A stretch of DNA of 63,591 bases, filler included, from Xylographa opegraphella (lineage: Eukaryota): assembly GCA_022813865.1 (NCBI GenBank). It is 3 parts of 3 records of this genome, joined end to end, with 100 filler letters (N's around TTAATTAATTAA, not from the genome) between each part and the next. Parts side by side here need not be neighbours in the genome. Positions count along the whole stretch, not along the records: positions 1 to 22,487 come from JALDZX010000131.1; 2 more parts are not named here. One strand, written 5' to 3'. The number at the start of each line of letters is the position of its first letter. Positions within the stretch are counted from its first letter, which is position 1. The notes beneath the pieces were generated by a model that saw nothing but the letters and a program-made list of their open reading frames with translations, had not been told where the DNA came from and made no database searches. The position numbers and the translations under genes were made by a program. Of this stretch, positions 354 through 30,544 are shown one piece after another.

Positions 354-359
354 CCCTTA

Positions 360-2345: not shown

Positions 2346-2528
2346 TGTGATGGCTATGACATCAGTCACAGGTGATAAGGGTCGGGCTGGATCAGGACTA
2401 GCACCTTTAGTATATATTCTCGCCCATGGAGCAGCCTCACCGCTTCTCCATCTTAATCTAGGTTGAAATCGTCCACCTAAAGCTTACGTTCTAGGCGTGC
2501 TTGTGTGGTGAGTTGATGAGCCGTAACA
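2346..2528 (-). mobile_element. Solo-LTR-like family A copy (183 bp)
   Basis: TGTGA...GTAACA; near-identical to five other full copies; flanks AAATA/TTATT do not form a TSD. Confidence 0.85.
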
Positions 2529-2944
2529 TTATTATATTATTATAATTATATTAAAAATATAAAAAATATTTAATTATAAAAACTCGAAAATTACTATATA
2601 AAAAGGCTGAGTTTATTATATAATCGTCAAATATTATCAAGCGATACGTACAAGCCAGCGTTTGATATTAAACGTAATGATTTTGAATTTATTCGAATTT
2701 TTATTCATCGTAATTTAATCGCTGTCGTATATTATTTTGCTTTTAATCATTATTATTAAAATACGATATAAATGAATTAATTAAGTTAATTTTTTTATAA
2801 TTTTTATATATCGTTAATTCAAAAACGCATATTATACGATTATAACGTTATAAACGATTCATTGTGAATTATTTTATTATTATAAATATTGTTAATATCA
2901 ACGAGCGCGCGACTTTAACTATCGCGATATATATAAAAAATATT

Positions 2945-3135
2945 AAAATAAATTATAAATTTAAATAAGTAGCGTACGGGATTTTTGCGTTAATCGAGCA
3001 AAATAACGATAAAATTTTTAAAATTACGCGAAGTTGGGCTTAAACGTGTTTGCCCCTAATTTCAATTGTTAGTCAGTAATAAGCTAACCCGCAGGGGCTT
3101 AGCGCCCCACACGTCTGAGGAGGTACTGAGGCAAC
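2945..3135 (+). repeat. Repeat terminus plus ACACGTCTGAGGAGGTACTGAGGCAA motif directly upstream of the F-box gene
   Basis: Aligns by eye with 18818-19009 (mostly transitions plus short indels). Confidence 0.75.
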
Positions 3136-3185: not shown

Positions 3186-4316
3186 ATGAGTCAATCCGTT
3201 GATAGAATGCGGGGAGGACTCATGAGTCTTCCCAATGAGGTGGATCGACCTCCCGAGTAATTTAAAAGTAAGCCACTAATTGAGATAGCTGCTAATAAAC
3301 GTACTGACGCCTTTTTCATCTCGACTGCTATTATCGCTAGCAACCGTATCTTACCGATTTTACAACATCATCTTTCGCATATTTCACACTCGCCTGCAAG
3401 TTGCAGCTTCATTAAAGAATGCCACCTTAATCCTGGAGTGTTATCACCCATCGTCAAGGAACACCGAGCCGTATCTCTTCTGCGACTATCTTGGAACACC
3501 AGATCTGAGCAGTGTCAATGAGGGCGAGCCCACAGTATATGCACATAACAGCCACGTAGGCTATTTTGGAAAGCTTTGCAACATCTACTCAAGGTTTCGG
3601 CCTATCAAGCCAGAAGTTGAGTATAGAGTTTTTCATTCGTACACACTTGGCAACGTTCCTCGACAAAGAGGCACAAGCACCGTGCTTTCACATCAACAAT
3701 CTGTGCCAGACGGAGGATCCGAAGCACTGGTTTCTCATTCATTGAATATGGACTCGCACGAATCATTTTCCCAATTATGTATTGTAATGAATTTGGTGCA
3801 GCTGGGCCCGAGAAGAGGCGTATTCTATGCATTTGTGAACGTCGCAGATGGTGTAGTGCGGATATGGAGGGAATGGCTTGCCCAAGGTGCAGAAATGAAC
3901 CGCGAGAAAATAGCAGAAGCCCCTCGAAGACTTTCAGGCGGAGTAGACTATTCTAAGGAGGAAACAAGGATATCTACCGTTGTCGAGGATGTCGACGAAG
4001 AAGCACGCACTCTTTGGGTCGACAGCCACGAAAATGTTGGCATTCGAGTTAAAGTTAAACAGCGAAGTTGGAAAGAAGATGTACCAGTAATACTCCACTC
4101 TGACGAAGACCCTGGAGTGAGTTATGTTATGGAGTACGAAGGTTCGTTCACGTTACGAAACAGAGTATCCGGCCGGAGTTTGGCTGACTAGTCGTAGAAC
4201 TTTTGGTTCGGACCAACCATCTTCTCCTGGCCATGGAGCGTATGTTATCGGAGCAGAATAACGCATCTAGCAAAGCGTTGGTGTTCTGTTCCTTTGCTTC
4301 CCAGAGTGAAACATAG
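3186..4316 (+). CDS. F-box domain protein (3 exons: 3186-3239, 3289-4141, 4198-4316)
   Basis: MSQSVDRMRGGLMSLPNE|LLINVLTPFSSRLLLSLATVSYRFYNII F-box signature; GT-AG introns with CTAAT/CTGAC branch sites keep the frame through ORF 3682-4191 to a TAG at 4314. Confidence 0.8.
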
Positions 4317-4528: not shown

Positions 4529-5142
4529 CTAAAGCATGCCCTTCACCATACGTGCCACCTCAGATTTCTCCACCGGTTTGCCGTCCAAGACACCGCCCGG
4601 ACCTGATACTGCCTTCAGCACACTTCCTATGTTGACAGACACGCTGCTGGTTCGCAATTCTTCGACTGTTTTCGCAATAGCCTCCGTCAGTTCATCTGGT
4701 CCAACCGTTTTTACTTTAGAAGCATATTCTTCAAGCAGCGCTACTTGCGCCTCTTCCTTTTCTTTAAGATCATCTCTTCTCGCCGCACCAAATTCTTGCG
4801 CTGCAGCTTTCGATGCAGCAGCACGTCTCTTCAACAACGAGAGCAATTGGAGGTCGGTCTTGATAGGGGTGGAGGTTTTGGATGCATTGGTGGTTTCCGC
4901 CAGAATTCCACGTAGTACATTAAGCCTTGAAGACACTTTCATCAGCATTTACAGAATTTAGGAGGCAGTAAGCATTAAAGGCACCGATTCGTGTCCTTTG
5001 CCTTCATGGCAGATTTTATATCGGATTTGAACTTCAATAGTAAAGGTGGTGCTGATACATCTAGAGGTAGCGTAGAGTAACCTCTCTGCAAATAACACCA
5101 GTAAGGTGTTTTGATCCATCGGAAAGACATCAAATGCATCAT
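4529..5142 (-). CDS. AIM41: Mitochondrial GatB/YqeY-domain protein Aim41 (one intron ~4928-4981)
   Basis: PPLLLKFKSDIKSAMKAKDTNR|LNVLRGILAE...DLKEKEEAQVALLEEY YqeY motif; N-terminal mitochondrial-type presequence. Confidence 0.85.
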
Positions 5143-6152
5143 ACTTGAAATCGTATGATTATCATTCACGTGCAGAAAGTATTTTAATATAATTCCTCGG
5201 GAATTCGTAGAATTCCATCTTCGAGTACCGTAGTCGCAAGGATAAACATTGTTAATGCCACGCTATAATCCCTGGTGTGATATATATCAAATTTGAAAAT
5301 ATATATATTTTTAAATAACAATGTTGCTGTTCTATATCGTGAATCGTTTCATGGTAATTGAATTATATTTTATAATTTGATTATAATGATATTTTATTAT
5401 AAACACGATTAATAACGAGATAATCAATATATATATAATAATTAATTATTGTAAATAATTAATCGATAACTTTATTTATTGTTGAATATTGAAAATATAA
5501 TAATTATATTTATTGAAAATAAAAATACATTCAGGGCTATTCTATAAACGATAATGAAAATATTCGAAAAAAATTAAAATAAAAATAAAAAAACTCGTAA
5601 AATTTTCGTTTATTTTTAAAAAGTTTATTTCCCAGGTAATAATACTCACTTTAAAGGTTTTTTTTGAGAATATTTTTTAAAAACTCGAGTTTATAAATTT
5701 TTATTTCAATACTTTTATTATAAATAAATATCCAGGTTTATTGCGCAAATAAAATTATAATATTAAAATTGAAATTATTAAATTAACGTTTTTATTAAAA
5801 AGTTAACTGTTTTATCTTTTAATATTTTTGATAAAAATAATTTTATTCCTTATTTTCTACCCTCGAATAACTACGAAATGAATTTTAAAACGACTATATA
5901 TTTTTATTTAAATAAAATATTCAACGCGATTGTTTTATATATTTCATTAAATAAAAATAATAAAAATGATTTTTTTTAAATCGGAACGGTTTTTTACGAA
6001 ATTTAATGTACAACGCGATTAATAAAGTTATAAAAATTTTTAAAGATGAAAAATAAATTACTTGTTAAATCGTTTTTATATAATAAAAATGTAAGGAAAT
6101 TTGCGCTCGAGCCGAATTTTCTTTAATTAAGATTTTAATTTAATAGTTTAAT

Positions 6153-6335
6153 TGTTACGGCTCATCAACTCACCACACAAGCACGCCTAGAACGTAAGCT
6201 TTAGGTGGACGATTTCAACCNAGATTAAGATGGAGAAGCGGTGAGGCTGCTCCATGGGCGAGAATATATACTAAAGGTGCTAGTCCTGATCCAGCCCGAC
6301 CCCTATTACCTGTGACTGATGTCATAGCCGTCACA
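6153..6335 (+). mobile_element. Solo-LTR-like family A copy
   Basis: TGTTACGGCTC...CCGTCACA, 183 bp; flanks TTAAT/AAGGG, no TSD. Confidence 0.85.
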
Positions 6336-6791
6336 AAGGGTGTATTTTATAAGAAAATAACTTTAAAAAATATTCGAGAATATTTAATATTTTTCGAATT
6401 ATTTTAAAAAAAATTTCTTAAAGAATTGGAAGAGTTTTAATTTTATTTATCTTTAAAAATTAAAATTAAAATAATTTTAATTGTTTAACTGCGAACGATT
6501 AAACGATTTATATTATGAAATTAATTCATTTATTTCGATTTTAAGATTTTAAAAAATATTTATATATTAACATAAACATTTAATTTATTTAGTAATTTTT
6601 TCAAAACAAATTAATATATATTCAGGTTTGAAATAGGAATTAAAATTCTTTTTCGCTTTGGTTATATATTCTTTATTATAATAATAAATATATTAATATA
6701 TCTCATAAAATTACGGCAATTTTATATATTTCTTATAATATAACGCCTATTAATGTATTTATTAAAGATTTTATTTAATAACGATCGAAAA

Positions 6792-6974
6792 TGTGACGGC
6801 TATGACATCAGTCACAGGTGATAGGGGTCGGGCTGGATCAGGACTAGCACCTTTAGTATATATTCTCGCCCATGGAGCAGCCTCACCGCTTCTCCATCTT
6901 AATCTNGGTTGAAATCGTCCACCTAAAGCTTACGTTCTAGGCGTGCTTGTGTGGTGAGTTGATGAGCCGTAACA
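6792..6974 (-). mobile_element. Solo-LTR-like family A copy (inverted relative to 6153-6335)
   Basis: 183 bp; flanks GAAAA/TTATT, no TSD. Confidence 0.85.
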
Positions 6975-8088
6975 TTATTAAAGAATTATTTATATTAATA
7001 GTATTAATTAAAAACGCGTACAAAGAATTTCAATGGATAAAAATAAATAAAATTCGTTAAAACGTAAATATACGTATTATTTATTAATAAATCGATAAGT
7101 AATAAATAATAATATTAATTATAAAAAGCCAAACGCGATTATAATTAAAAAGTTTAAATATATTAAATTAAAATTTAAAAAATAAATCGTAGTAGTAAAT
7201 TTTATATTAATAATTACTTTGAGAAATTTTGATTATTTTTTATTCGCTTTTTAAAAAATATAAAACAGTTAAAGATAATTTTAACGTACGAGAAATTTAC
7301 GACGTTATAAAATTCGCTAAATTATTAAAAAAGCTTGTTTTCAAATTTTAAATAATATCGCATTTTAAAGCAAATGGGGCGATCGCGAAAAAAAATCAAA
7401 AATAATATTTTTCGTTATTAAAAAAATTTATTTAATTTTAAATAATTAAAGTTTTATTATAATAAATTAGTAAGTATTTTCTTTGTCGAAAAGAATATTA
7501 TTTAATAAATTATAATAAATTTTTTTCGCTGTAAAATAAATCGATATAAAACCCTCGATTAGTTTTTTTAAATATAAATTATTCAATAACAAAATTGTCG
7601 ATAAAAATAAAATAAATTACGAAATAATCGAAATAAAAACTATCGCGAATATAACGTTAAGAATTAATTAAATAATAATAAATTAACGAATTTTAAATTC
7701 GACTTTGAAAATCAAGCGATTAAAATTGTTATTTTTTTTAAAAAAATCTTTGTTGGTAAATTTTCTAAATTCGATTAAATAATCGATTCTGACGTTTTTT
7801 TATATAATCAATTAATTTAAATTTTTTGATAAATTTTTAGTTAAAATAAAAAAGCGTTAAATAAAAGTTTTAAAAATGATATATTAAATACGCTAATACA
7901 ATTATTATATAAAATCGTAAAAATTATAAAAAAGTTTAATTTTTAATTTTTTAATTTGAATATTAATTTTCTTTTTAATCAACGAATGTGCGAGAAAACT
8001 TTGTATAATAATGTTAATATTAAAATTATATATATACAATTAAAATAAAAAAATAAAAAGTAATTATTCGTAAAAAAATAACGTATAT

Positions 8089-8279
8089 TGTTAATTGGTA
8101 GAAGCATCACTTACTGGTAGGCATAAAGGAATACCTGAAGGCTAGTTCTATTTATGTATAGCGTAGTTCAGTACTAGCGTAGGAGGTATATGTCACGTTC
8201 TCGTGGCCTATACCGAACTTCACCGAATATACGATTACTGTTGCCCCCGCCCTGATCCAAATACACGTGCCTTTTAATA
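8089..8279 (+). mobile_element. Solo-LTR-like family E copy (191 bp)
   Basis: TGTTAA...TTAATA (terminal CA>TA); TSD TATAT; second copy at 25709-25899. Confidence 0.8.
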
Positions 8280-9358
8280 TATATATTATTAAAAAAATAA
8301 TAAAAAAACTTTAATGATTGTATTTTCGTTATTTTTATTTCTAGCAAAACCGAGCGTAAATTATTTATTTAAAATATAAAAACGGTTTAGTTTTTTAAAT
8401 TCATCGATATTTTCATATTTAATTAAAAATAAATTAAATCGTTAATTAATAATATAAATTTTACGCCTAAATAAAAGGAATTTACGTTGTTTAAAAGTAA
8501 TATAATAAAATACGTAAAATATACCCTTTCATAACGTTATTTCGCTTGATTAAAACACGTTAAAATAAGAAATTTATATAAAATAATTAAAATTTAAAAA
8601 TCAATCGCCGTTTTATAAAGCATTAACGATATCTACGATATTTATAATTGTTTTAAATTTCGAAATTAAAAAGATTACGTCGTAAATAAATATAAATTTA
8701 AAGTTTTCGTTTTAATGTTAATTGATATAAATCAATTTCTTTTAGTATTTCGCGAAGGTTATTTTTATCTTTCTTTATTATCAATAATTATTTTACAAAG
8801 ATTTAAAATGTTTCGTTAAAGTAAAGATTAAACGCAATTATCGAATTAAATAAATAAAAATTAATTTTAATCTTTAATTTAAAATAAAATTTATAGCAAT
8901 TTATAATAATAACGCTTTTAAATTTAAATTCATTTTAAACGATCAAAGGATAAATATTGAAATAGTTTTTGAATATATAATATTTTATAAGTTAATATAA
9001 TATAACGTTATTAAACAATTGATATAAATTTTAAATAATTTAATACGCGTTATATTTAAAAATGTAAAGTTTTTCGTTAAATTTTCAATATCCATTATAT
9101 TAAAAATTAAAAACTTAAAAATTATTATTTAAAAAAAATTTATACCGCGCGATTGTACAGGGGTATTTATAAAATACGTTAATAAAATAAATAAATAATA
9201 ATATTTATAAATATTAAATTTGTAACGCGTTATTAAAAGTTACGCGGTAAAATTCAAGAAAAATATATTTAAAAAATTAATCGATTTTAAATTTTTAAAA
9301 TAAATTATAAATATTTTATTTATTAAAAAACTTTACAAAAAAACCTCGTATATATATT

Positions 9359-9541
9359 TGTTACGGCTCATCAACTCACCACGCAAGCACGCCTAGAACG
9401 TAAGCTTTAGGTGGACGATTTCAACCCAGATTAAGATGGAGAAGCGATGAGGCTGCTCCATNNGCAAGACTATATACTCAAGGTGCTAGTCCTGATCCAG
9501 CCCGACCCCTATTACTTGTGACTGATGTCATGATCGTCACA
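9359..9541 (+). mobile_element. Solo-LTR-like family A copy
   Basis: TG...CA, perfect TSD ATATT. Confidence 0.9.
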
Positions 9542-9977
9542 ATATTAATCGAAAAAAAACCCGTTGAAAAATTTCGATTTTTTTAATGTTTATAAAAGAT
9601 TTAAATAATTAATTACATCTAAAAGTTTATCGAATAAATTTTTTCGTTCATTTAAAAATTCTTTTTGTTAGTAATTAATTTTTTTTATATATAACGATTT
9701 TTAAATAAAATTTTTAATTAATTAAAATATTTAAAATACGTTATTAATCGTCGAATTTCTTTTATTTAATTATTTAAACAAATTCAGCAAGGCCAATTTC
9801 GATAATAATAATAATAATATATCGTAATGAGAATTTTTTACAATAAGTTATTTTTTTACTAATTGAGAGTAATATTAATTGAGAAATCTTTAATGCTTTA
9901 TATTTAATGAATTGATTTAAAATCACGATAAATTTTTCTGTTATTATAATATAATTATTATCAAAATAAAAAAAATT

Positions 9978-10950
9978 TCAAATCGAAATTCGATCCTTAA
10001 TGAAATAAAATAACTCGCTTGGATCAATATTTTATTTCCTTTTCAAATTTAATTTTCGAAAGTTTTAACTTTATTTTCACAGCGTTGTATATTTAACGAA
10101 TTTTCTCTATATTAAATTATTTTATTACAGCGTAATTATTACAAAATAATTCAACGTAAAAAATCTCTCATTGAATATATAACGTTATATAAATAAAATT
10201 AAAACTTCGAGAAATTAAATTTCAAGAGGAAATAAATATTAATCAAAGCGAGAATACTACGCTGCAATTAAAATAAAAGGGATTCAAATCAAAATTCGAG
10301 CGTTAATGAAACATATTTTTTCGCTTCGTTCAGTACTTGATTTCCTGTTCAAGTGTTAAGGTTCTCACCTTCATAGGGAATCTCGGGACAGGAGGAACCT
10401 GGCCCCGAGATTGCTCCTGTGGCTTGGCACAGGAGCTCGCCAGTTGCTCCTGTTGCTCCTGTCAGGAGCAAGAGGAGCACCCAGGAACAGGACTTCTATA
10501 TAGAGTGGAGGATCTCTTATGTTGTAGAAGGCGTGTTCAACTCAGGTTATGATCTTAGACTACTAGGCTTCAATACAATACTGTACGAAGACTATTAGAC
10601 TGGAGCATTNNNNNNNNNNNNNNNNNNNNNNNNNNACTCATTGACGAATCCAACCCAGATCCCTAATCGAACTATACTAGTGAGAGGCAGGATCGTAACA
10701 TCAAGTTTAACTTTTTCCACAGCGTTTTAGATTTAATGAAAAATCCCTTTTACGTTGAATCACTTTGTAATAATTACGCTGCAATTAAGATAAAAAGGGT
10801 TCAAATCGAATTTCGATCGCTAATGATGCAAATTATTTCGCTTCGATCAGTACTTTATTCCCTATTTGGGTTTAGCTCCAGGAGGTCTTGGCTTTCCACG
10901 GCGCTGCATATTTAGCGAGAGGTTCTTTCACGCTGGATCACCTTGTAACT
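9978..10950. repeat. Degenerate ~170-bp repeat array with one inverted unit, probably a transposon subterminal region
   Basis: TCAAATC(G/A)AA(A/T)TTCGA...TCGCTT(C/G)G(A/T)TCA(G/A)TA recurs at ~9978, ~10286 and ~10801; a reverse-complement unit lies at ~10128-10255; interrupted by a family C element. Confidence 0.65.
10354..10700 (+). mobile_element. Complete solo-LTR-like family C element (~347 bp)
   Basis: TGTTAAG...CGTAACA, perfect TSD TCAAG, internal TATA-like CTATATAGAG; contains a short N gap. Confidence 0.9.
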
Positions 10951-11417
10951 GAAAATCAGTTCTTTTATATTATATAGAATAATCACTGCCGCATCATTCT
11001 TTACGTACCTGCGAGGCAGGAAATTCAGATTCGGAAAAATCGAACAGTGCTTGAGTTAGGAGATGAATGCGAAATTGCCAATATACAGCTGATCCATGAA
11101 CTTGCTGGGGAGTCAGCAGTAACATTGCTATTTTCCTAAGACGCATTTCAGGTTTTAAATCAAATAGACTTCACTATCATATTGAATCCCCGCTAAAACA
11201 TTATACGCAATCCTCCTAAATGCTACAGCAGCGAGATATTTTCCAACAGCGTTGAAGCCTACTCGCCAATCAGCACCCGTCCATAAATCGTAGGAAATGT
11301 AAGTCATGGTTATTTTGATCCTGGCCCGCTTGATCGACTCACACAGAATCGTTAAAAGTGGAAGCTTTCGCACACAGATCAAAGTGTGATGATCGATTAC
11401 ACAGAGTCAACTGTGCC

Positions 11418-12393
11418 TCACTGATCTTCTGCCTGAGACAGTGCCGAACATGGAGCTTTCGTTATCAGTCGAGCGAGATCAGGCCATGTGCCAGCAGGAC
11501 AAGACACAGCCAACGGCAACGACGGGCAAGTTCGCTGTTCTGGAGGGGTGTATGGCAACTTTGTGAAGCGTTTGAGCCAGATGTTCAGGCCAACCTTTGT
11601 ACCGTCTTTGACCGGCAGACCAGAGTGAGCTGTTTTCCTGTGGCCTGTACCGTCTGGGTGCTCGTTGACCCAAAAAACTGCGCTTCCGGCTACCGGAACG
11701 ACGCCCAAGGCAGAGCGATTGAACGGATCATTAATAATTTCACCGTCGATCATTGAAGGTTGAATCTTAATCCCAGGAAAGTATGTCTCACCGCCAGTAC
11801 AATTGCCATCCAGATAGACGAAGATGGTAGCCAAACGGTTGTAGTACCTGCCTTCAGTGTCTTTCACTGGTTCGTTGAACCAGTCAAAGTGAGTTCGGAA
11901 TGCTTGAGCTGAGCTATAACGTACGACTTGCAATGGTTCAAGGCCATCAGGATCAAGAAAATCAAGGAAGTTGAAGACGCGGTCTGCAACTCGTTGTGCT
12001 ATGGGATCCTCGTAGCCTACGAAATAGGTCTCCGACGTTCTCCAGGCCGAGAAAGATCCATCGAATCCGGTCCCGACGACTTGCGATCGTGAGAATGAGT
12101 TGGAACTACATGAGGCTTGTAAGTCAAAAACACTTGGTCAATACGCTTAGCATAAGGTACCTGATGTTCAAGAAGTGTAAAATTTCGCTTGGGGCTAGGA
12201 AGTTGTGGAGATGAACGAAAAGCGGATCCGTATGAAGGATTCGAGGTGTGTAATCGTGTTTGAGAGTTTTGTCCTCTCTATCGAAGTTTTCAATGCACCC
12301 TGACAGTTCCGCATTGGAATATTTAATAAGAGCGAAAACCCGCAGGATACCTAGTATAGATATGAAAAACTTGGGACATTGCAAGTTTGTCAT
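11418..12393 (-). CDS. Prolyl 4-hydroxylase alpha-type 2OG-Fe(II) dioxygenase with N-terminal signal/anchor (intron ~12110-12160)
   Basis: PRILHTDPLFVHLHNFLAPSE, RTSET, LEPLQVVRY, HFDWF (HxD), RLATIFVYL, GGETYFP, GSAVFWVN, HSGLPVKDGTKVGLNIW. Confidence 0.88.
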
Positions 12394-13956
12394 TCTTGTA
12401 CAGCACGGATTCTGTTCTTGCAGAGAGGATTTATGGAATTCAGGGGAAGAAAAATTGTGTGCCTTCTGAAAGGTGCTCTGGGATGTATAAACGATCCGAC
12501 CCACCTTGAGCTTCAGGAACTCCGCCGCCTCCGCCGCGATGGAGAATCAAACGAGGAGATTGGCTTTTGCGGCAGAACGAGGCTGAGCATATCGTCATCA
12601 AATAGTCAAGTCACAAGTCTACTATTTTTTCGTGCAAGAATCCGACTGCATGATTCACTTGGTGTTACATGATCAAATATGTTGCAAGCTCTCCTGAGAG
12701 GAATATCTGGTAGGGGCATGTGCGGTGGCTGAATTTTCCATGACTGGTCTCTCAACGAAATACACAGCCTTGTTTCCGGCTTTTACTTCAAAGCCATCAA
12801 GCAACCGACAAGTCGAGGCACAGTAAGGCAGTAGAAGCGTCGTCTCGTCCTAATCGTGGTTGTGCTGTAGCCGCTCTACTCCGGAGCGGCTTGGCATAGA
12901 ATGCATATTCAGTCCTACAGGGTCCCATGTCATGTTTTGGTGTCGAACTCCAAAAACTTTGCGGGGAACAGTAAATAATTATTTGTATCTGTTGAAACCG
13001 ATAATTTGCACCAATGTTGTTTTACTACAATTTATCGTAGCTTCCTGGATTCATTGGAGATATTTCGACCACGCCAAAGGTTGTTCGAAGTACACTTTAG
13101 ACTGATTCGGGCGTAACGCGTTTCTTGAAGCGCTTCCATTCCAACCCAACGTTGCAGCGTCGTTGGAAGTGGATCTAGCGGGGTGAGAAGATCTTAATCT
13201 TCAGCATAATCACGTTGCCGGTGCAATAACCCATGTTAAGGTATATGAAGTTGCCATCACAAAAATTGGTTGTAGTCATTTAGGTCTCGCGCCGTTCCTG
13301 TCTGGTCTACACTGTCCTTCCCAGAGGAGGTTAGTTTTTGGTCAACTCCGTGCCCCAATCAACAACAGCTGTGTTCTTATTACACAAACGCTCCCTATCA
13401 TGTTATTTGGGAGACTGTTCGCGGACTTGAGACACGCTAGCGGCAACCGACTATACCTCTATGTAACCATAAGCGTGCGGCAGTGCGGCTCATGGCTTCT
13501 GCTCGATCCGCAATAGCGGTATCAGCTTTGAAGATTCTGGCCTCGAGGCGTAATTGATGTAGGTAAAGACCAGGCCAGGTCGAACGCATTGAGCTGGCCC
13601 ATATTGATCGTTGGCGGCGCTGCTTGCTATGCTTGTTATGCTCGCTATTCTATCGTGGAAGATAACTTCTGCCGAATTATCGATTGTATTATGCGCCCCA
13701 TATTGGACATCGTTAATCCTAGTGATGTTAGATCCATTCAAAATCTGTCGTCAAAACATTGCAACGACACATGAAAGGCTGGGGGCCTGAGTGAGCGACA
13801 TGCTCCCCGATATCTATAAGAAGGATTCTATATCCCAGGGATACCAAAGCAGAACATTCACTCCCAGCTACAAGAGTAATCGGAACCCCAGTCAGAATTG
13901 CGAATTCGTCATACAGCTTTCCAATAGGTGTCTCAATTCTTACCATTCACAACAAA

Positions 13957-14470
13957 ATGCTTTTCACCAAAACCGCACTCGCGACTATGGCGGTATGCCT
14001 GACCTTCGTGGCTGCAAGCGAACCCAATCTTCACGCCCGTGACATCGAGTACGAGATTATGAAACGTGATGCCTATGCAGAAGCCTATGCCGAAGCATAT
14101 GCAGATGCCTCCGACGATATCTGGGCTCGGTCCATCGATGAAGACGAACTCTTTGTTCGGTAAGCATCTTCCCCAGTGTACCCATATAGTACACCACAAG
14201 ATTTCCTACTTCTTCCCGATACTGACTACTCTGTTGGTGATAGTGATCTTTATGCTCGCGCACCACCATTCCATATTCATTCTGATAGTACCGCCACTCA
14301 CACGCCTACCAGTCAGGGTGGCATGTGGGCTGATACCTCATTGACCCCCAAGCCCAACCCACCAGGGCCCAAATCGTCCCGTCATCATCGCCGCTCAGGC
14401 GTCAAATGTACGTTTCTGATGTCGCCCCCGAGCAACTTAAGCTGACTGTGCAGCCTATGATCGTCGTTAA
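13957..14470 (+). CDS. Small secreted prepro-peptide precursor (exons 13957-14159, 14244-14407, 14454-14470)
   Basis: Signal peptide; LHAR/IMKR/IWAR/LFVR/LYAR sites; DA-YA-EA-YA-EA-YA-DA dipeptide run; introns GTAAGC..CTGAC..TAG and GTACGT..CTGAC..CAG join the exons in frame. Confidence 0.8.
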
Positions 14471-15255
14471 ATTCTGCATTCCTGATTGAACGCGGCGAGC
14501 TTGAATCATCGAACGTACCTCGTCTTTCTGTCGTTATTTGCTTTGTCCTCGCAAATAGATCTTCGCGTGTCAGACTATAGTTAGCAGTGTTAGGAATATT
14601 TAGCAAGAAAAGAGAAGTTGTTCTCAACATACACTCTTGGAATCGTCCTATTAGTGCTCAATTATGACAACTCGCACATTCATTGTCGAGAAACAGGGGC
14701 GCTCAACAAACCCAACGACAGAAATAATGACTGAAGCAAATTTCCGAACGAAACAAAGACTTGTTAATATTTTATCGTAGAAAGCACCGTTCGAGCCTTA
14801 CTTCCTCTGAAGATAGCCTGAGTTCCAAAAGTATCATGAAATAAGAAGTGCTGCACATGGGTTTTTTGGTACAGATGAGGTTTCACATGTATCTCAAAAT
14901 AAAAAAAATTGTAGCCCATCTAATGATATCAAATACACTTAGCTATGGTTCGGGAGCACTCCCTTTGGATTTGAATTTGAGATTAGGCTCAGCAACTTGG
15001 TGGTAAATCCATCCGGACTTGCCCTGCTCTGCTTCCCGTCACATTAGCCCGTACAAAATCAACGCATACAAAACCGTAGCCCCGTTCAAGCCAGAAGCCA
15101 TCAAGGGGTATCTTCAAATTTCTTCCAGCACACGCCCATAATTGATAACCCGTTGCCCTAATGAAGCAAAGCAGTTTGAGCTTCTCACAGCATCGCTCCA
15201 ATAGCCCCCGCCATTATTTTGCTTCGTTGGCGTGCATAGACGTGTACTGGAGCGC

Positions 15256-16032
15256 TTAAAATCCGTGAACCTGCGAGGAAGTTAATCTTTCGCTGTGTGT
15301 GGTGAACTAACAGACGGATTACCTTGATGGTCTTGGCATCGAGCCCCAACCCTTCTTTCTTGTCAACAAGGAATTCCTGGACATCTTTGCGCTGGTCTCC
15401 TTGAAGTTGAATCACCTCTCCCATCTCAGTATCGACGACGATGGTACCATTGCAAGCTGGAGTGCTGTGAGTTAGCATCATGAGCAATATCGTTCCTGCA
15501 ACCGGCAGGGTATTAACTTACCAAATTTCTTCTTGATGACCTTGAGGATCTTCTTCTGGTCGAATATCTTCGGCAGTCCTTGGACAGTTGTCAAGGTCTT
15601 ACGACCATTACGTTCTGTGTCGACAATTAGGCTAATTAGCTTCGACGTTCCAGATCCATCATAAAGGCTTGAGCTTGTTCGTGTTTAATGCGCTGGGCTG
15701 TACGCACGCTGGATTCGTATATGAATGTAATTTTGCGATTCTTTACCATCTATGTTGGTATCATCCGCTTCGGCGAAGGGATCTATATGATACGGTCGCA
15801 TTAGCTTGTGATAGCTGTGACACCATTCCAACTTCTCAATTCCGATGACAACCGGGGCTATGACAGGTTATCATCATGATGGACTTAAGAAAGCTGGATT
15901 TATGTTCATTCAGATGTGTAAACAGTTCCTGTCTTATTACCGACTGTGGTACGTGGCTGCTTCGATCTGTGGAAGCGGGGCACGAGAGTGTCTGTCGAAC
16001 TCACCAAATGTTTTCAGGTTTTCGATTGACAT
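15256..16032 (-). CDS. SUI1: Translation initiation factor eIF1 (multi-exon)
   Basis: MSIENLKTF|DPFAEAD...IHIRIQQRNGRKTLTTVQGLP...FACNGTIV...GEVIQLQGDQRKDV...KVHGF*. Confidence 0.95.
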
Positions 16033-16288
16033 AAACTCGTGTGTATTGAAGACTCTATGTAAGAGATTTCTGTGATAGGATACGAGTGTAAAATTGAGGG
16101 AAGGTCTGATATGATGCCTTTGTGAGTCGGTGGATTGTGGAGTGAGGATGCTTGTTAGAGTGAGGTTGTGTTCGGGCGCCTTCGAGTGGACAAAATGGAG
16201 GGGAGACTTGCCTCATTCTCCCAGATGTGGCTCACTAAGCCATTGTGGGTTAGTGCTATGATATTGCTGACTAACGAGCTAGGAGCGA

Positions 16289-16312
16289 ACACGTCTGAGG
16301 TACTGAGGCAAC
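16289..16312 (+). promoter_or_regulatory. ACACGTCTGAGGTACTGAGGCAAC motif upstream of SUI1, at the edge of an AT block
   Basis: Nearly identical to 3109-3135 and similar to 18990-19009. Confidence 0.55.
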
Positions 16313-16349
16313 GTAGAAAAAAGAACTCGTGGCCAGGTGCGTTAAACAG

Positions 16350-18950
16350 TATTAAAATGAAAAACAAATATTTTTAATTAATATGCAAAAAATCTGTCTT
16401 TATAAATTGAACTTTATTAAATTCATTGACTTCAATTTCAGATTACATTTTATATAAATAATTTTTTACAATAAATAAAGTTTAAGATTATATATAATAT
16501 AAAATATTAATTTATATATTTCGTTTAATAATTGGTTGGCAATTGCTTAACGAAAACAGTTTTTTATAATAAAATTAGCTTTAATATATTTTTAAAAAAT
16601 AAATTATATTTAATAATATAATAATATTATTTATAATATTAACTATAAGTTTTTATATACGATTATGATATTATAACATTAAAATTAAAATTTAATTTGA
16701 ATTTGCATTAAACTCAATTTTATACTGGAAAAAATTCGTATTTAATCAAAATTAATATTTAATTAATATTGATATTCAATTAATATTCATATTAAATTTG
16801 AATTTAAATTTCAAGTTCAATAATTACGATTTAAAAATATTTTTGTTAGAAATAGAGTCCCGGCCTGCCTGCAGGATAGCGAGAGCTGCTAAGCGAGAGC
16901 TCGGGNNNNNNTAGGCCCGGTGACGCTAGTGCGCGAGCATATAGTCTCGTAGTTGTTCATAGCTAATACAACACACTTCTTTACCCATATATTCTGCTAG
17001 AATGACCACTGCGCTTCAGTACCCATCGTACCTTTCAACAACTATTACTATTTATTATTTTATTAATAAATTCGACGATAATATTAATATCGTAAAGAAA
17101 CTCGAGGGTTCAACCATTATAAATATAATTAATATTAAAATATTTTCGAAAAATTATATATAATAAATTAGTAGTAATATATTCTCGATTTCAAAAGTTT
17201 TAAAAAGTATAAAATATAGAAAAATTATTTATGAAAAATTTATAATCGATTATATAATTAAATATATTAATGGTCGTCGAATCGAAAAAACAGCGACAAT
17301 TAATATTAAACATAAAAATTTATTAAACGATTTTGCTGGCATCGAAATCAACGATAACGTTGAAAATTGATAATTATACGTTAAAATTTTAAGCTTAAAT
17401 AAACTTATTAAAAGTAAACTTAACGATAATAAAACCTTAAATGATATAAAAATATAATTAACAACGAAAGTATAATAAATCATATCGTAAAATATTATGT
17501 TAACCTTATTTTAATTTAAATTAATTTTTATAATTTTTGGTTAATTTTATATATAGCGACGGATACTTAAATGTTTATTAAAAAATTAAAAAAATTTCGG
17601 GCCGTTTAATTAAAAAAGTTAAACTACGATTATTTTAACGTATAAAAAATCAATTTAAAATTATTAATTATTATTAATTTTAACGAAAAAGTTGATTACT
17701 TTGAGTTTAATTATAATTTATTATATCGCGATTTTATTACTTAGCTAAAGTTGAATATAATAAACGATCAATATTATTATAAAATTAATAATAAATGGAA
17801 AAGGGTATTAAATGTAAAAAATAAATACAACGACCTTTTAAATTATGTAAAAATCAATAACGAATAAATATAAATTAAGTCTAAAAACGATACAAAAAAT
17901 TAAAACCTTTAACGATATAAATAAAAAACTATTTTTATCGAGTCGTTTTTATATTATAATATATTTAATAATAATTAAAAATAAAAAAACGTTAATATTA
18001 TCGAGGGTTGAATATGGTTATTTATTGCATTCGATATTAAAAGCGTATGAATAATATTGAATTTTATAATTATTATATTAAATTCAAAGTAATCGATTCG
18101 ATAAAAAATCGAGTATAATATATAGCTAAATATAATAACGCTTAATTTAAATAAGATAAAAAAAAACAATGCGTTAATTTTATTAAATTTACTATAAATA
18201 ACTATAATAAAAATGTTAATATAACGTAAAATATATTTTAATCGATAATATAATTAAAAATAAAAGAATTAATTTAATTAATAATCGTCAAAATATATAA
18301 TTAATATCAATTAATTATAACATGCGTTCAAAATTAGTTTAAAACATTAATAATTATTTAAAAAATTTATAAATCGAGATTACGATCATTAAAATTTGAA
18401 GTTTTTTAAATCGCTTCAAACTCTTTGAATCAATATTTATTTAAAAATATAAGCAAGATAATTTTACACTTTATATTTAAAATTTAAATAATCGAATATT
18501 TTTTATTTTGCAAAAAAATCGAATACTCGTATACGAGCGTAATACACACACGGGCGCAATATATATATAAATATAATATATATACGGGCGCAAGATTTTA
18601 TATTAAGATATTTTTTTAATTTTGATTTTTCAACTCGCTGCGTTCGACCCTGATTAAATAATTTATTTTAAATAATTTAATCGTTAAATTTTTCAACGCG
18701 TTGTGCTGTTTTTTATTGCAAATACGTACGTGAGGGGGGAATAAATGAATTTTTTGAAAAATTAAAAAGCATTCGGTTCTTGAAATTCTAAATACAAAAT
18801 ATATAATTTTTTTCCCCTAAAATAAATTATAAATTTAAATACATAATGTACGCGATTTTTGTATTAAATAAGCAAAATAACGATAAATTTCCAGAAATAT
18901 ACGAAGTTGAACTCAAACGTGTTTTCAGCAATAAATTAACTCGAAGGGAC
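16350..18950. mobile_element. AT-rich RIP-degraded insertion between SUI1 and IFA38
   Basis: AT-rich, no real ORFs; its right end is homologous to 2945-3104. Confidence 0.75.
16844..17040. mobile_element. Solo-LTR-like family F (single copy)
   Basis: GC-balanced island TGTTAGAAA...TTTCAACA in AT-rich DNA; no clear TSD. Confidence 0.65.
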
Positions 18951-19074
18951 TTAGCGACGAACGCTAATTCGACGGGGCTTGATACACCCCGTCTGAAGGA
19001 CTGAGGCAAGTAACAGGTGCCTCGCTTCTAAGGTGTGAAGTTTACCTGTTTTAACGTACGATATAATCCCCAAT

Positions 19075-20196: not shown

Positions 20197-20463
20197 TATA
20201 GAAAATGAATATAAATTCACATGAAACATTGTTTCATAAATATTTCAAGAATAAATTTATAAAATTATTAAATTAATAAATACGTCGTTATTAACGTAAT
20301 AATATATTTTTATATAATATTGAAAATTATTGATTATTTGAATAAAAAATAAAGTATTAATCAAGGAATACGCGAGACGCGGGTAAAAAATTTATTATAA
20401 TAAATTAAAAATAACGATAAAATATAATAAAATACATATTTTAATTTTTATAATATAAAAATT

Positions 20464-20680
20464 TGTTACAGTCATGGCTTGCAAGGCTTTGATTTGTCTG
20501 TTTACCTGTTTGTTTATTTGTTTGACTACAAAGCTCTTGCCCTATTTCGTTGTTCAATAAAAAAACTTTTTGCCTAATTAAAGAACTTTATATATATAAA
20601 TAAAGTTTTCGGCTTTGTAGATCATTGATTTTTTATTCTATATTATACTTACTTTATTTTTAATCGTAGTTATAATATAT
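20464..20680. mobile_element. Partly RIP-mutated LTR-like island (family G)
   Basis: Starts TGTTACAG; locally higher GC; right end uncertain. Confidence 0.4.
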
Positions 20681-21151
20681 AGTAGTATTATTTAATCATC
20701 AAGAAATTATTTATTTTTTAAAAATACGCCTATTAATATAATCGCTTTAGTTTAATTTATGTTTCGCCGCCTAAATTAAATGCATTAAAATACAATTTTA
20801 TAAAGATTTAACTTTTTAATAAAATTATTTTAATTATATTTAATCGAATTTCTTATTAAATATTTATATTTTTAATACTTTATTCTTAATTATAATACTA
20901 ACTTTATCGTTCCAGCTTTATTATATTAACTGCGATAAAAATTCGCTTTTACAAACTCGATATTAAAATAATTTAATAAAAGTCTTTTTTAAATTTTTAC
21001 TATTAATTTTTTAAATCGATTTTTTTTAATAAACTCGTTGATTTATTTTCGTATTTTTGCAGTTTCGCTTTTATAAATTTATTGAATTTATACGACCTGA
21101 ATTTTTGTTAAATATTTATACTTTTAATAGCTTTATATTTAATTACAGTAT

Positions 21152-21594
21152 TGTTGAATTTAATCACTAGGCACAGGGGTTTTGGCAGCAAATAGCAGTG
21201 CATTGCTTAATCACTAGAAAGATAACGAGTACTCCTGAAACTGAGGCTTCAGAAAACTCTTCGTGTTACGGCTCGCTATCTCACCAGAAAAGCAGGCCTA
21301 GAACCTCAGCTATAGGTGAGCGATTTCAACCTAGAATAATATAAGGAAGCAAGTTTAGTAATACACGTAGAAGTTAAAATAAACAGTGCTAACGCCAAGA
21401 CTCCTANNNNNNNNNNNNNNNNNNNNNNNNNNNNNNNNNNNNNNNNNCCGGACGCGCTTTAGTCCCGTTCCGTCTATCACTTGTTAAGGTGCCATGTAAC
21501 ACGCCGTTACACTTCGAGTCCTGACCTAAGCTAGTCCTAATTGGCTATAGTACAAAAAGACAACACAGGCTGTTAACCCCCTGAATTGTCAACG
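21152..21594 (+). mobile_element. Solo-LTR-like family D copy interrupted by a family B insertion
   Basis: TGTTGAA...GTCAACG; perfect TSD AGTAT; homologous to 23308-23494 and 33933-34122. Confidence 0.88.
21264..21511 (+). mobile_element. Solo-LTR-like family B copy nested in family D
   Basis: TGTTACGG...CCGTTACA with perfect TSD CTTCG. Confidence 0.9.
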
Positions 21595-22427
21595 AGTATT
21601 AATTTTATCGTATTAATTTTACCGTATTAATTTCGATAAAAATCAGTTACTTCGAGTTTAATATTTCGTAAATTTTTTAATTAAATATCAAAATTTTTTA
21701 ATATTTCAGCTAGTTATATAAATTCTGGTTTATTTTATTTATATTTTTTTGAATTAATTACTTTAAATTTTAATTTACCTTATTTAATTACCTTCGTTTT
21801 ATTTCTGTATTAATTACTAAATTTCTAGATATAAAAATCGAGAATCAGTTAATTATTTTAATTTATTTATAACTTTTTTATTGTTCATTTATATTATTAT
21901 TAAATTACTTTCGTTCTACGAAAACGTATTTACTGGAAATTTTTTAATAATTTTAATTATTCTTCTTCTTTTAAATAGCAGCTATTAAATCATTATTACT
22001 ATTTAGAATATTTTTTGCCCCAGAAATAAAATAAAAGATTATATATAATATTCGCGTTGTAATAGCCGTAATTTTTGCAGCTTTAAAATTTTTATTATTA
22101 TATTTATATTTATTAATATTCAATAATTTCTTGTATCGTAAATATTATTTAAATTTTCCTTTCAAAATTTAGCCATTGAAGCATATTCGAGCTCGCTTTT
22201 AATGCAATAAAATTAATATATTTATAACGATTAAATTTAATTTATTACGTTTTAAACCTTTCGTATAAAATTTACTAAAAATTTTTACTTTTAGTATTTT
22301 AAACTTAAGTAAAATAATAATTTGTAATTAGCTTTTATTTGCCTTGAAATTATTACAATTAAATAATAATAATAATAATAATAATAAATATAGATAAAAC
22401 TCGAATTCTTTCTATAAGTTCACCAGG

Positions 22428-22487
22428 TGTTACGATCCTGCCTCTCACTAGTATAGTTCGATTAGGGATCTGGGTTGGATTCGTCAA
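22428..22487 (-). mobile_element. Family C end, truncated at a contig break
   Basis: Reverse complement of the last 60 bp of 10354-10700. Confidence 0.85.
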
Positions 22488-22587
22488 NNNNNNNNNNNNN
22501 NNNNNNNNNNNNNNNNNNNNNNNNNNNNNNNTTAATTAATTAANNNNNNNNNNNNNNNNNNNNNNNNNNNNNNNNNNNNNNNNNNNN
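22488..22587. other. Artificial scaffold spacer N44-TTAATTAATTAA-N44
   Basis: Exactly 100 bp with a six-frame-stop linker; repeated at 44885-44984. Confidence 0.92.
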
Positions 22588-22810
22588 AAAGAAAATAAAG
22601 AAAATAAAGAAAATAAAGAAAATAAAGAAAATAAAGAAAATAAAGAAAATAGAGAAAATAAAGGAAATAAAGAAAATAAAGAAAATGAAGAAAATAAAGA
22701 AAATAAAGGAAATAAAGAAAATGAAGAAAATGAAGAAAATAAAGAAAATGAAGAAAATAAAGAAAATAAAGAAAATAAAGAAAATGAAGAAAATAAAGAA
22801 AATAAATAAA
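22588..22810. repeat. 9-bp minisatellite (AAAGAAAAT)n
   Basis: Direct tandem repeats with occasional G variants. Confidence 0.9.
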
Positions 22811-23307
22811 ATAGCGAAAATTATATATAAATCGTAATTTAATAAAATGCCGGGGCTATTCGATATTTTTGATAAAAGATTTTAAATTGATATTTTGACT
22901 TCAAAATTATTTTTATTTCATTTATTTAACGTATATATTAAAATAGTATATTATTAATTTCGTTATAAAAAACCAATATTATAACCCTTCGTAAATTGAG
23001 GAAAAGAAATTATATAAATTTATCGTTTTTTTAATATAATGAAAAAGGCTTTAAAATTAATTATCGTAATAAAAATTAACGATTTAACAAAAAAATATTT
23101 TTATTTTTAACTTATGAATTAAAGGCGAGACGCGAGCGATTTATTAAAATGAGGCTAAATTACTTTATAAAATCAATCTATACAATATAAAGTAAAAATA
23201 ACGATTACACAGCGACGATATTAAATTTGAATATTAATAGCGTTTTTAATAACGTATTTTATTAACGACTGCTATATAATTTGCGTAAATAAAATTTTAA
23301 AAGATTA

Positions 23308-23494
23308 TATTGAAACTAATCACTAGGCGCAGGTAATGGCAGCAGGTAACAGTGCATTGCTTAATCACTAAGAAGGTGAAGAGTTCTTCTGGAGACGGGG
23401 CTCCAGAAGACTCCTCTAGTTCTGCACTAAGCTAGGCCTAATCGGCTATAGTACAGGACCAACAACACAGACTGCTAACGCCCTGATTTCAACA
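23308..23494 (+). mobile_element. Solo-LTR-like family D (diverged copy)
   Basis: TATTGAAA (TG>TA)...TTTCAACA; perfect TSD GATTA. Confidence 0.85.
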
Positions 23495-25450
23495 GATTAA
23501 TAATTATTTTTAATATTTAATAAATAAATAAACGTTATAAAAAATGACGTTAACGTCGAAATCTTGCAGGGGTTATTAATTTTTATTAATACAATTTTTA
23601 TTTTTAACGTAAATTTATTCGATAATTATAATAAACTAAGTTTAAAAGTTATATTTATAAATTTCGTAAACGACGTTAACATATTAATTTACGATCGTTT
23701 AATTTAAGAAAACATAAAATCTTAATTAAAATATATAAAAAATATACGACGTAAACGAGTAAATATAACGTTATTTTCGCGCTCGAGAAATATAAACTTA
23801 TTTATCTTTTGTATATTTTTAAAATATTTAACAAAGCAGCGACATTATAAACGACGAAAATGATTATTAATTTAAAAAATATTAAAATTTTAGGCGTTTA
23901 AATTAATATAAAATTAAATAAAACGTATATTTACGAAATATAAACATTAAAAACATGATATAAATACTGGCGATATTTAAATTAAATAATTTTATTTAAA
24001 AATAACTTTCGCGAAGGCAAGATAAATATATAATATAATAATTAAATCGATGATTATATATAAAATGACGGTATAATATAAGCGAAACGATATTAAAGAA
24101 TTAGTGAAAATAAAAAACGAGTCGAAATTTTATAAAATCAAGGGCTACGAAATATAATAAAAAAAATTAAAATTAAAAAATTATAATTAAAAATATTCGT
24201 ACCCCCGATTAAATTATATTTTACCAGATCTAAAATTACGCGATTTTACGTATATGAAATATCAATAAAACGTCGAAAATAAATAAAATTTACGATAAAA
24301 CTAAAATAAAAATTAAAATTCGGTCAAAATATACAATTTTAAACAAAAAAACCGAATTTTAAAAGAAATAATTAATAAAAAATATTATACTATTAACTAC
24401 GAAAAACGTATACATAACGTTATCGAAAAAAATTATAATAATCGCTTATTAAATCGAATAAAATAAAAAATAGATTAAAAATTAAAAAAACGAACAAAAT
24501 ACCGTCGTAAGGATATTTTTTCCACAAAAAAGCGATAAAGTTATAAAACGGGTTTTACAAAGTAAAAAATACGTTAACGATATATATTAAAATAAAATAA
24601 TTAATTTAAAAACGTATTTATCGTCGAAATTTTTTTTAATTATAAATTATTATATAAAACGAAAGGCTATGATCAATTACAAATAGTCTAATATATATTA
24701 ACGCAGTACAAAATTTTAACGGCGCTAAGAACGTATAAAAAACGATTTAAATATTATTAAACCTTCAAATTATCGAAATTTAATTAAATTTATTACGCAA
24801 TTTCGAGCGACGATTAAAATATTAATATATACAAAACTGTTAAAATAATTTTTGATAGCGAAAATATTTTTTAACGAAAGCGATTAAATTAATAAATAAA
24901 TGAATATAAATATGTAAGGCAGCGCAATCGCGACAAGAGGTGTTTACATATAAATTAAGAGAATAACTTTTTCCTTAAAGTATTTTGTTCATATAGCCAT
25001 TGAATAAATTTCTTAATAAATCGATTAAAGTCGATATTATGAAAGTGTATGAATATTACTATTGTAAAATTGTTATTTTAATCGTTCTTTAAATCGTTTT
25101 CTTAAATTTAACTGCGTAATTTTTAATATTTTTAATTATAATTAAAGTTTTGAAGTTTTTAGCGAGATTTATAATTTTTTATTATAAATTTTTTAGAAGA
25201 TTATTCAAATTGATTGTTTTTCTTAAACTTTTATTATATTATCGCGGCGTTAATTATACGTAAATTTATCTCCGTTAAAATTATAAAAGATTTAATTTAT
25301 AATATATATATTTTAAATTTATCATTTTTTTAATTTTTTAGTAGATTATTCGTTTATAAATATTAAATTAATAATTATTTTTTATTAATTTATTTATTTC
25401 GTAATTGGTCTTTATAAAAACGGTAATTAAAGTTTCGTCGTCGTAGCGAT

Positions 25451-30536: not shown

Positions 30537-30544
30537 TAACTAGG

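Follow-up and report, generated by a model that had tools for sequence, protein, structure and literature searches.

The monomeric prolyl 4-hydroxylases (P4Hs) of plants and algae accept coil-like, proline-rich substrates, and the precursors of yeast alpha-factor and of honeybee apidaecin and melittin share a layout in which a dibasic KR is followed by X-Ala dipeptides. To our knowledge, very few secreted effectors have been characterized in the lichen symbiosis, and we are aware of no fungal ribosomal peptide, among those described, that has P4H-made hydroxyproline as its defining modification. For the algal P4H, one source describes crystallization with a (Ser-Pro)5 peptide, names Glu127, Arg161, Trp243, and the Fe ligands among the active-site or substrate-positioning residues, and reports inactivation of the enzyme when Tyr140 is changed to Ala (PMC5684110). 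For secreted fungal proteins, another source describes class 1 Kex2-processed peptide precursors, searches for Kex2-processed pro-domains by the criterion of KR, RR, or LxxR ahead of residues that promote disorder, within the protein's first half, and presents the mature domain of the effector SnTox3 as folded, with a solved structure (PDB 6WES) (PMC8528282).

We analyzed a window of 63,591 nucleotides (the whole stretch of DNA, filler included) from the lichen-forming fungus Xylographa opegraphella (GCA_022813865.1), in which a P4H gene on the minus strand and a small prepropeptide gene on the plus strand lie head-to-head (Table 1). Both genes were found where the preliminary description had placed them, with stop codons that form the outer ends of the pair at 11418 and 14470, and the shared upstream region that it had estimated at ~1.5 kb measured 1563 bp from ATG to ATG. 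This spacer held no direct or inverted repeats, a search of 10700..16200 (spacer included) against Rfam at gathering score returned no families, and none of five scanned ORFs internal to the spacer matched Pfam at the cut-off. On these scans, we rejected an extra gene within the spacer.

Together with a gene for eIF1/SUI1, the P4H and peptide genes occupy a three-gene island of ~5 kb (10.7-16 kb), flanked by AT-rich blocks whose GC content is 21-23% and whose dinucleotide indices are RIP-like. The left block is bordered by a gap of 26 N (10610..10635), with the P4H stop codon 783 bp away. The locus had earlier been placed at the edge of a transposon block, which is only approximately correct; the island does sit between AT-rich, RIP-like blocks, but no transposon genes were identified. 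The region is a clear case, from a lichen fungus, of gene islands lying amid AT-rich blocks of RIP-like character. Across the window, 12 of the 18 large ORFs scanned had a Pfam family and 6 had no match, and the matching ORFs elsewhere in the window were of housekeeping type (SUI1, YqeY, SDR, AdoHcy hydrolase, C2H2 zinc finger, PLA2_B, palmitoyl thioesterase, and L1). Head-to-head neighbors are frequent in fungal genomes, and because of this the layout alone does not go beyond what chance would give. As a separate observation that counts against independence of the two genes, each is either lineage-restricted or divergent and they stand alone with eIF1 on the 5-kb island; a dedicated pair could look alike.

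Table 1. Features of the divergent P4H and peptide genes, in positions of the window
Feature	Position	Strand	Description
P4H exon 2	11418..12105	-	residues 78-306, stop codon 11420..11418; 2OG-Fe(II) oxygenase domain and C-terminal extension
P4H intron	12106..12160	-	55 nt, GT..AG; intron-free model identical to P0003
P4H exon 1	12161..12393	-	residues 1-77 and two bases of codon 78; N-terminal hydrophobic segment
Divergent intergenic region between both start codons	12394..13956	.	1563 bp, 47% GC
Peptide exon 1	13957..14159	+	predicted signal peptide (~1-20/21), then the larger part of the acidic pro-region; LHAR, IMKR, DAYAEAYAEAYADA, IWAR, LFVR
Peptide intron 1	14160..14243	+	84 nt, GTAAGC..TGATAG; P0030 continuous across the joint (..ELFVR-DLYAR..)
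Peptide exon 2	14244..14407	+	last Kex2-type site DLYAR; basic Pro/Ser/Thr/His-rich tail with TPKPNPPGPK and internal RR
Peptide intron 2	14408..14453	+	46 nt, GTACGT..GTGCAG; P0030 end ..KSYDRR
Peptide exon 3	14454..14470	+	five last residues SYDRR and stop codon

The two-exon P4H gene encodes a product of 306 amino acids, and our model was 100% identical to the annotated protein P0003. Its assignment as a secretory-pathway P4H gene is supported by a match of exon 2 (residues 58-177) to PF13640 above the cut-off (41.9 bits against 27; E, 2.1e-10), by an N-terminal hydrophobic segment predicted to be a signal peptide or a type II anchor, and by aligned Fe and 2-oxoglutarate (2OG) residues. Similar N-terminal hydrophobic stretches were present in full-length fungal homologues (alignment A3). 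The closest solved relative was the type I P4H of Chlamydomonas reinhardtii (3GZE/2JIG; E, 1.2e-15), with which residues 44-255 aligned, and residue equivalents were taken from this alignment with an offset of 28 derived by hand. The Fe(II) triad HxD...H is represented by H150, D152, and H238, which align with His143, Asp145, and His227 of 3GZE; E134, R168, and W254 align with Glu127, Arg161, and Trp243; and K248 aligns with a Lys ten residues past the distal His of the algal enzyme, which we take, in role and number, to be the 2OG-binding residue. In an alignment of 27 homologues, H150, D152, and R168 were invariant and H238 and K248 nearly so. From these alignments, the enzyme looks catalytically intact. 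The equivalent of algal Tyr140 is Phe147, and P4H activity is therefore assumed; Phe occupies this column in several of the closer fungal homologues as well, and Tyr in another group (A3).

The Xylographa enzyme has in common with the Chlamydomonas P4H (2JIG, 2V4A, 3GZE) and the monomeric P4Hs of plants and algae the HxD...H...K signature and, with the Chlamydomonas enzyme, the aligned equivalents of Glu127, Arg161, and Trp243 and a single domain behind an N-terminal hydrophobic segment, but it differs in its low identity over the 212 aligned residues, in the Phe at the Tyr140 position, and in an extra Cys-bearing C terminus. This extension, of ~45-50 residues with three Cys, was found in only two of the 27 aligned proteins, both from Xylographa. 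The orthologue in X. parallela was 87% identical and represents a cluster of 8 member sequences, and beyond this pair the next match was at most 44% identical. More distant members of the family were present in Sordariomycetes, Dothideomycetes, and Eurotiomycetes. Proteins of Diaporthe, Podospora, Thozetella, and Talaromyces that are named, by family only, as PF13640 "prolyl 4-hydroxylase alpha subunit-like" share the NCTGG[EG]T.FP motif, a similar length, and the N-terminal hydrophobic segment with the Xylographa enzyme, but their identity to it, across 54-77% of the query, is only 34-44%, and they lack the C-terminal extension.

The peptide gene (13957..14470) comprises three exons that encode a precursor of 127 amino acids with no internal stops. 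Two database proteins matched it. P0030 (JGI, 117 amino acids) was ~90% identical to the precursor, with 12 differences in 117 positions (88% identity over exon 1 and 91% over exon 2), and was colinear with it across both splice joints, so that the splice model has independent support. Intron 2 is supported in particular because the ending ..KSYDRR arises only if the intron is removed, the unspliced end being ..KCTFLMSPPSNLS. P0031 (ENA, 68 amino acids; 76% identical to P0030) matched exon 1 and ended exactly at the border of intron 1. It was the only relative of the peptide found in a HMMER search of 1.84 billion representatives, a protein search started from P0031 returned that protein alone, and searches of JGI metagenome contigs with P0030 and with a three-row alignment (A2) returned no relatives. 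On these comparisons, the peptide gene is real, spliced, and restricted to close relatives. The small prepropeptide gene that had been proposed is upheld by the spliced model, colinear P0030, and P0031, and the model reproduced the C-terminal sequence previously reported after DLYAR, P-K-P-N-P-P-G-P included. A well-supported model of three exons is now available for the gene, together with two relatives.

The precursor begins with a hydrophobic core (Kyte-Doolittle maximum of 2.48, window of 9) followed by V-A-A-S, from which residues ~1-20/21 are predicted to form an N-terminal signal peptide. The pro-region that follows (residues 22-73) is acidic, with a net charge of -9 and a pI of 4.2, and the precursor carries an unusual abundance of Kex2-type sites. 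Five [LI]xxR sites, including one with a dibasic KR (LHAR, IMKR, IWAR, LFVR, and LYAR), fall within residues 25-73 of 127, and at least five such sites were reached in 8 of 20,000 shuffles. A 14-residue run of seven X-Ala dipeptides directly follows KR. The X-Ala run, IW[AV]R, and LHAR were present in all three homologues. Since KR is replaced by KL and LFVR by HFVR in P0031, the Kex2-type sites are not all conserved. The tail after DLYAR consists of 54 residues with a net charge of +5, a pI of 10.95, 8 Pro, 5 His, and no Cys. As read from the alignment with P0030, 25 residues surrounding the Pro-rich stretch were unchanged, and no other visible block of the tail was as conserved; because this block is the Pro-rich one, the prolines may matter. 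A single-sequence AF2 model of low confidence (pTM, 0.20) rendered the pro-region as helix and residues 63-117 of P0030 as coil.

These features resemble several described classes of precursor in part. Like the K2PP effectors SnTox3 and ToxA (PMC8528282), the Xylographa precursor has a predicted signal peptide and a pro-region closed by LxxR/KR sites that fall in the first ~60% of the protein, and it is small, predicted to be secreted, and lineage-specific. The position of its sites agrees with the search criterion for Kex2-processed pro-domains, although the stretch was modeled as helical and not disordered in the low-confidence single-sequence model. In contrast to K2PP effectors, the tail has no Cys and no predicted fold, being modeled as coil in the same low-confidence model, and several sites stand in a row instead of one. 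Because the tail looks disordered and K2PP effectors are folded, the fit to this class is only partial. Repeated core peptides between Kex2 sites, as found in fungal RiPP precursors, were absent from the precursor, which in this respect also differs from class 1 precursors, and the host is a lichen-forming fungus and not a plant pathogen.

The resemblance to the alpha-factor, apidaecin, and melittin precursors lies in the dibasic site followed by an X-Ala run and in the combination of an acidic pro-piece with a basic Pro-rich product, but the Xylographa precursor contains one unit and no tandem copies, and its X-Ala run precedes more pro-region and not a basic peptide. A precursor of an alpha-factor-like pheromone was rejected, given the single KR and X-Ala unit, the lack of a repeated peptide, and the KL that replaces KR in P0031. 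Protease sites, a short Pro-rich stretch, and an adjoining candidate tailoring enzyme recall CLE, CEP, and HypSys peptides and the ustiloxin/dikaritin RiPPs. We rejected a CLE/CEP mimic, as exon 2 matched no Pfam family at E <= 1 and a comparison by eye showed no agreement of the Pro-rich stretch with the CLE or CEP consensus. Among the 18 large window ORFs scanned against Pfam there were no fungal RiPP tailoring genes of the DUF3328/UstYa, prolyl oligopeptidase, methyltransferase, or tyrosinase types, leaving the P4H as the only candidate.

We favor, at a probability of roughly 0.55, the reading that the locus holds two real and probably independent secretory-pathway genes, a Kex2-processed peptide beside an ordinary secretory P4H, with an adjacency that would not reflect a dedicated pairing. 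The hydrophobic N-terminal segment would either direct the P4H to the ER/Golgi lumen or anchor it there, and the enzyme could then hydroxylate prolines of unfolded Pro-rich secretory proteins generally. The predicted signal peptide would bring the peptide precursor into the ER, and a Golgi Kex2-type convertase would then cut after DLYAR to free the 54-residue basic tail, which the internal RR and C-terminal RR may allow to be trimmed to ~41-43 residues. The product would be a linear cationic extracellular peptide, possibly directed against microbes or toward the symbiotic partner.

A dedicated pairing, in which the neighboring P4H hydroxylates prolines of the peptide (TPT and TPKPNPPGPK) in the ER/Golgi to give a secreted, possibly O-glycosylated hydroxyproline peptide from a two-gene unit with a shared divergent promoter, seems unlikely to us, though it draws on a range of observations. 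The genes share a three-gene island, on which they lie head-to-head with 1563 bp between them, and both are restricted or divergent; the P4H retains the Fe and 2OG residues and the Glu127, Arg161, and Trp243 equivalents of the algal enzyme that was crystallized with a (Ser-Pro)5 peptide; both products carry N-terminal hydrophobic segments predicted to serve in targeting; and the tail, modeled as coil, has 8 Pro in 54 residues within which the Pro-rich block is identical in the precursor and P0030. However, the sole link between the two genes is adjacency in one genome. Members of the P4H family occur in three fungal classes, yet HMMER found a single relative of the peptide (P0031), and a family so much wider than the peptide must therefore have other substrates. 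The close P4H orthologues that we found all came from NCBI genome annotations and none from JGI or ENA, the sources of both peptide homologues, but this is a weak argument because that protein search was word-indexed and length-filtered. A complex prediction with P4H residues 40-265 and the 54-residue tail, run without controls, scored 0.01 against a mark of 0.34, a result that speaks neither for nor against the pairing. The literature that we found on P4Hs with secreted-peptide substrates comprises plant, nematode, and biotechnology work and yielded no precedent for such activity of a fungal P4H on a secreted peptide from a fungus; the accessible part of an Aspergillus niger collagen paper says nothing on native fungal P4H substrates (PMC12333218).

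If functional, such a pairing would represent a new modification route for fungal ribosomal peptides, namely, P4H-catalyzed hydroxylation within the secretory pathway, and a concrete candidate for a signaling molecule in the lichen symbiosis. In its most specific form, which we regard as very unlikely, the locus would be a minimal two-gene lichen-fungal system in which a dedicated, lineage-specific P4H with its Cys-bearing extension hydroxylates the invariant TPKPNPPGPK of a Kex2-released peptide, and the hydroxyproline product, possibly glycosylated, targets the algal partner or microbes associated with wood or the thallus.

A different reading of the peptide gene is that short pro-region peptides are the real products, as in class 1 Kex2-processed precursors or the alpha-factor pheromone: Kex2 would cut at the [LI]xxR/KR sites, a Ste13-type dipeptidyl aminopeptidase would trim the seven X-Ala pairs, and the resulting oligopeptides would signal, with the tail as a by-product. 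The crowding of five sites into 52 residues, a count matched in so few shuffles, the KR followed by X-Ala dipeptides, and the retention of the X-Ala run, IW[AV]R, and LHAR in three homologues all point in this direction. We nevertheless consider it distinctly improbable, since the released pieces would not be repeats of one core, the KR is KL in P0031, and by eye the sequence seems unlike the ascomycete pheromone consensus. Furthermore, differences from P0030, counted by hand, numbered 5 in the 54 residues of the tail versus 6 in the 52 of the pro-region; divergence is thus no more rapid in the tail, which argues that it too is under constraint.

That no gene underlies the peptide ORF, which would then be a chance reading, is scarcely credible; in favor of that view, the ORF was absent from the named NCBI proteins returned for X. 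opegraphella and X. parallela, had no Pfam family, and gave no ESM Atlas hit of at least 0.8 with P0030 (the best, at 0.78, fell in bacterial lipoprotein clusters and was treated as noise), but this view is contradicted by the matches to two independent database proteins (P0030, ~90%; P0031, 76%) and by the colinearity of P0030 across two canonical GT..AG introns.

Finally, of three sequencing runs of one study (X1, X2, and X3), X1 contains the stretch in full and is possibly where it came from. When reads were mapped onto 10750..16000 at 80% likeness, matches of X2 and X3 were confined to the conserved SUI1 exons, except for one piece at low depth in X2 (bin 11454..11629).

Both genes were recovered at the places that the preliminary description had assigned to them, and its splice model for the peptide gene and the C-terminal sequence quoted from it were reproduced. 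The exon 2 ORF of the peptide gene had a sole match in a collection of 5.8 billion proteins, P0030 (JGI, 117 aa), whose cluster holds four members on two contigs, each of at most 2372 nt. P0030 is colinear with the spliced model over both exon joints and differs from it at 12 of 117 positions. Because this gene call lacks both introns, it derives most simply from spliced RNA or a eukaryotic gene model, and either origin independently supports the exon structure of the peptide gene; P0030 also suggests that the gene is expressed in a relative. The sole HMMER match to P0030 among 1.84 billion representatives was P0031, an ENA protein of 68 aa (76% identity) that corresponds to exon 1 and ends at the exon 1/intron 1 border, like the window's own frame. 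Since P0030 is colinear and P0031 matches exon 1, the peptide belongs to a real, otherwise undescribed family of at least three members. Pfam contained no family for the peptide, the ESM Atlas contained no neighbor at or above 0.8, and the peptide was absent from the named NCBI proteins returned by the protein search, so that the gene seems to be unannotated in the deposited Xylographa genomes.

Features of the window and of the two gene products
Feature	Position	Strand	Details
P4H gene	ATG 12393, stop 11418	minus	one 55-nt GT..AG intron, 12160..12106
P4H C-terminal extension	11421-11560	minus	residues ~260-306; three conserved Cys
Peptide gene	ATG 13957, stop 14470	plus	introns of 84 and 46 nt, canonical ends; 127 residues
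Precursor N terminus	residues 1-21		hydrophobic, V-A-A-S at end
Precursor pro-region	residues 22-73		acidic, net -9, pI 4.2; LHAR, IMKR, IWAR, LFVR, LYAR
Precursor tail	residues 74-127		basic, net +5, pI 10.95; 8 Pro, 14 Ser+Thr, 5 His, no Cys
eIF1/SUI1 gene	15185-15900	minus	with introns; third gene of island
AT-rich blocks	1-3000, 5000-10590, 16100-19000, 20300-37300, 44000-45000		~21-23% GC; RIP-like dinucleotide indices
N runs	10610-10635, 21407-21447, 33098-33160		inside or bordering AT-rich blocks
Paired 44-N runs	22488-22531 and 22544-22587; 44885-44928 and 44941-44984		12 bases between
ORFs without Pfam family	3289-4191, 54835-56559, 58493-58990, 61430-61993, 40459-40971, 41522-42046	+, +, +, -, -, - (in order)

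The precursor contains five [LI]xxR sites, a number reached in only 8 of 20,000 shuffles, and seven X-Ala dipeptides directly after KR, while the tail has one internal and one C-terminal RR. PMC8528282 gives as criteria for Kex2-processed pro-domains that KR, RR, and LxxR sites lie within the N-terminal half of the secreted protein, and it states a preference for Arg at P1 and an aliphatic residue at P4. A single-sequence AlphaFold model (pTM 0.20) rendered the pro-region helical and the tail as coil. Conservation of the sites is incomplete, with P0031 carrying KL for KR and HFVR for LFVR. By alignment count, differences to P0030 are spread evenly over the pro-region (6/52) and tail (5/54), but none falls within a block of 25 residues spanning the Pro-rich stretch. 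The peptide gene is a genuine orphan gene whose basic, Pro-rich product is predicted to be secreted and to undergo Kex2-type processing.

P0003, a database protein of X. opegraphella, is identical to the computed spliced P4H translation. The exon 2 translation was 100% identical to this 306-aa NCBI protein and 87% identical to a 315-aa NCBI protein of X. parallela, which identifies the window as lichen-forming ascomycete DNA; beyond this Xylographa pair, identity was at most 44% (Sordariomycetes, Dothideomycetes, Eurotiomycetes, and unnamed metagenome proteins). Exon 2 matched PF13640 (Pfam) with a score above the cut-off. The nearest of all PDB sequences were those of Chlamydomonas P4H (3GZE, 2JIG, and 2JIJ; E ~1e-15), followed by Bacillus, human C-P4H alpha-2, viral, and transmembrane P4Hs.

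Residues were matched to Chlamydomonas P4H with an offset of 28 derived from the alignment itself. K248 falls on the 2OG-binding Lys of the algal enzyme. H150, D152, and H238 align with the Fe ligands His143, Asp145, and His227, and E134, R168, and W254 align with Glu127, Arg161, and Trp243, which PMC5684110 names as ligands or substrate-positioning residues. Unlike the algal enzyme, which has Tyr140, the P4H of the window has Phe147 at the equivalent position, as do several closer fungal homologues, with Tyr in another group. A hydrophobic N-terminal segment, likewise found in full-length fungal homologues, would fit either a lumenal location of the enzyme or type II membrane anchoring. The C-terminal extension of ~45-50 residues with its three Cys occurred only in the two Xylographa proteins among 27 aligned and might serve in substrate binding or retention. 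The P4H is an ordinary new representative of its family that carries a private C-terminal extension.

The enzyme and the peptide are linked by adjacency alone. We slightly favor a model, at a probability of roughly 55%, where the two genes work independently and the peptide is processed as described. The preliminary description had suggested that the P4H may hydroxylate its neighbor, while allowing that the pairing could be chance. In favor of this link, plant and algal P4Hs accept unfolded Pro-rich chains, and the peptide tail is a chain of this type; both gene products look secretory, and both genes are lineage-restricted or divergent. However, P4Hs of this family occur widely among fungi where searches found no peptide relative, and the other Pfam-matching genes among the large ORFs scanned in the window are of housekeeping type, with no known RiPP tailoring enzyme; these points are against the proposal or neutral, as is, weakly, the lack of a close P4H orthologue from JGI or ENA, the sources of the peptide homologues, in a limited search. 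We consider it unlikely that this P4H forms Hyp on the peptide. A dedicated, co-inherited two-gene system is less likely still.

The two genes lie on a 5-kb island (10.7-16 kb) together with an eIF1/SUI1 gene. Their start codons are 1563 bp apart; no repeat was found in this spacer, none of five ORFs scanned there scored in Pfam, and an Rfam scan of 10700..16200, spacer included, returned no family. Along the window, AT-rich blocks (15-25% GC) interrupt gene islands of ~45-50% GC; the blocks make up roughly half of the sequence and produce, in this lichen fungus, a compartmented "isochore" layout. The indices of these blocks are RIP-like, with TpA/ApT of ~1.0 versus 0.7 in genic DNA and (CpA+TpG)/(ApC+GpT) of 0.71-0.87 versus ~1.25. 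Six large ORFs, one of 574 aa, had no Pfam family at E <= 0.001. In the same sequencing study, two other organisms have contigs that match the SUI1 exons at 80-90% likeness. The three single N runs may reflect gaps in the assembly or masking; the first, 26 N long, is found 783 bp past the stop codon of the P4H gene.
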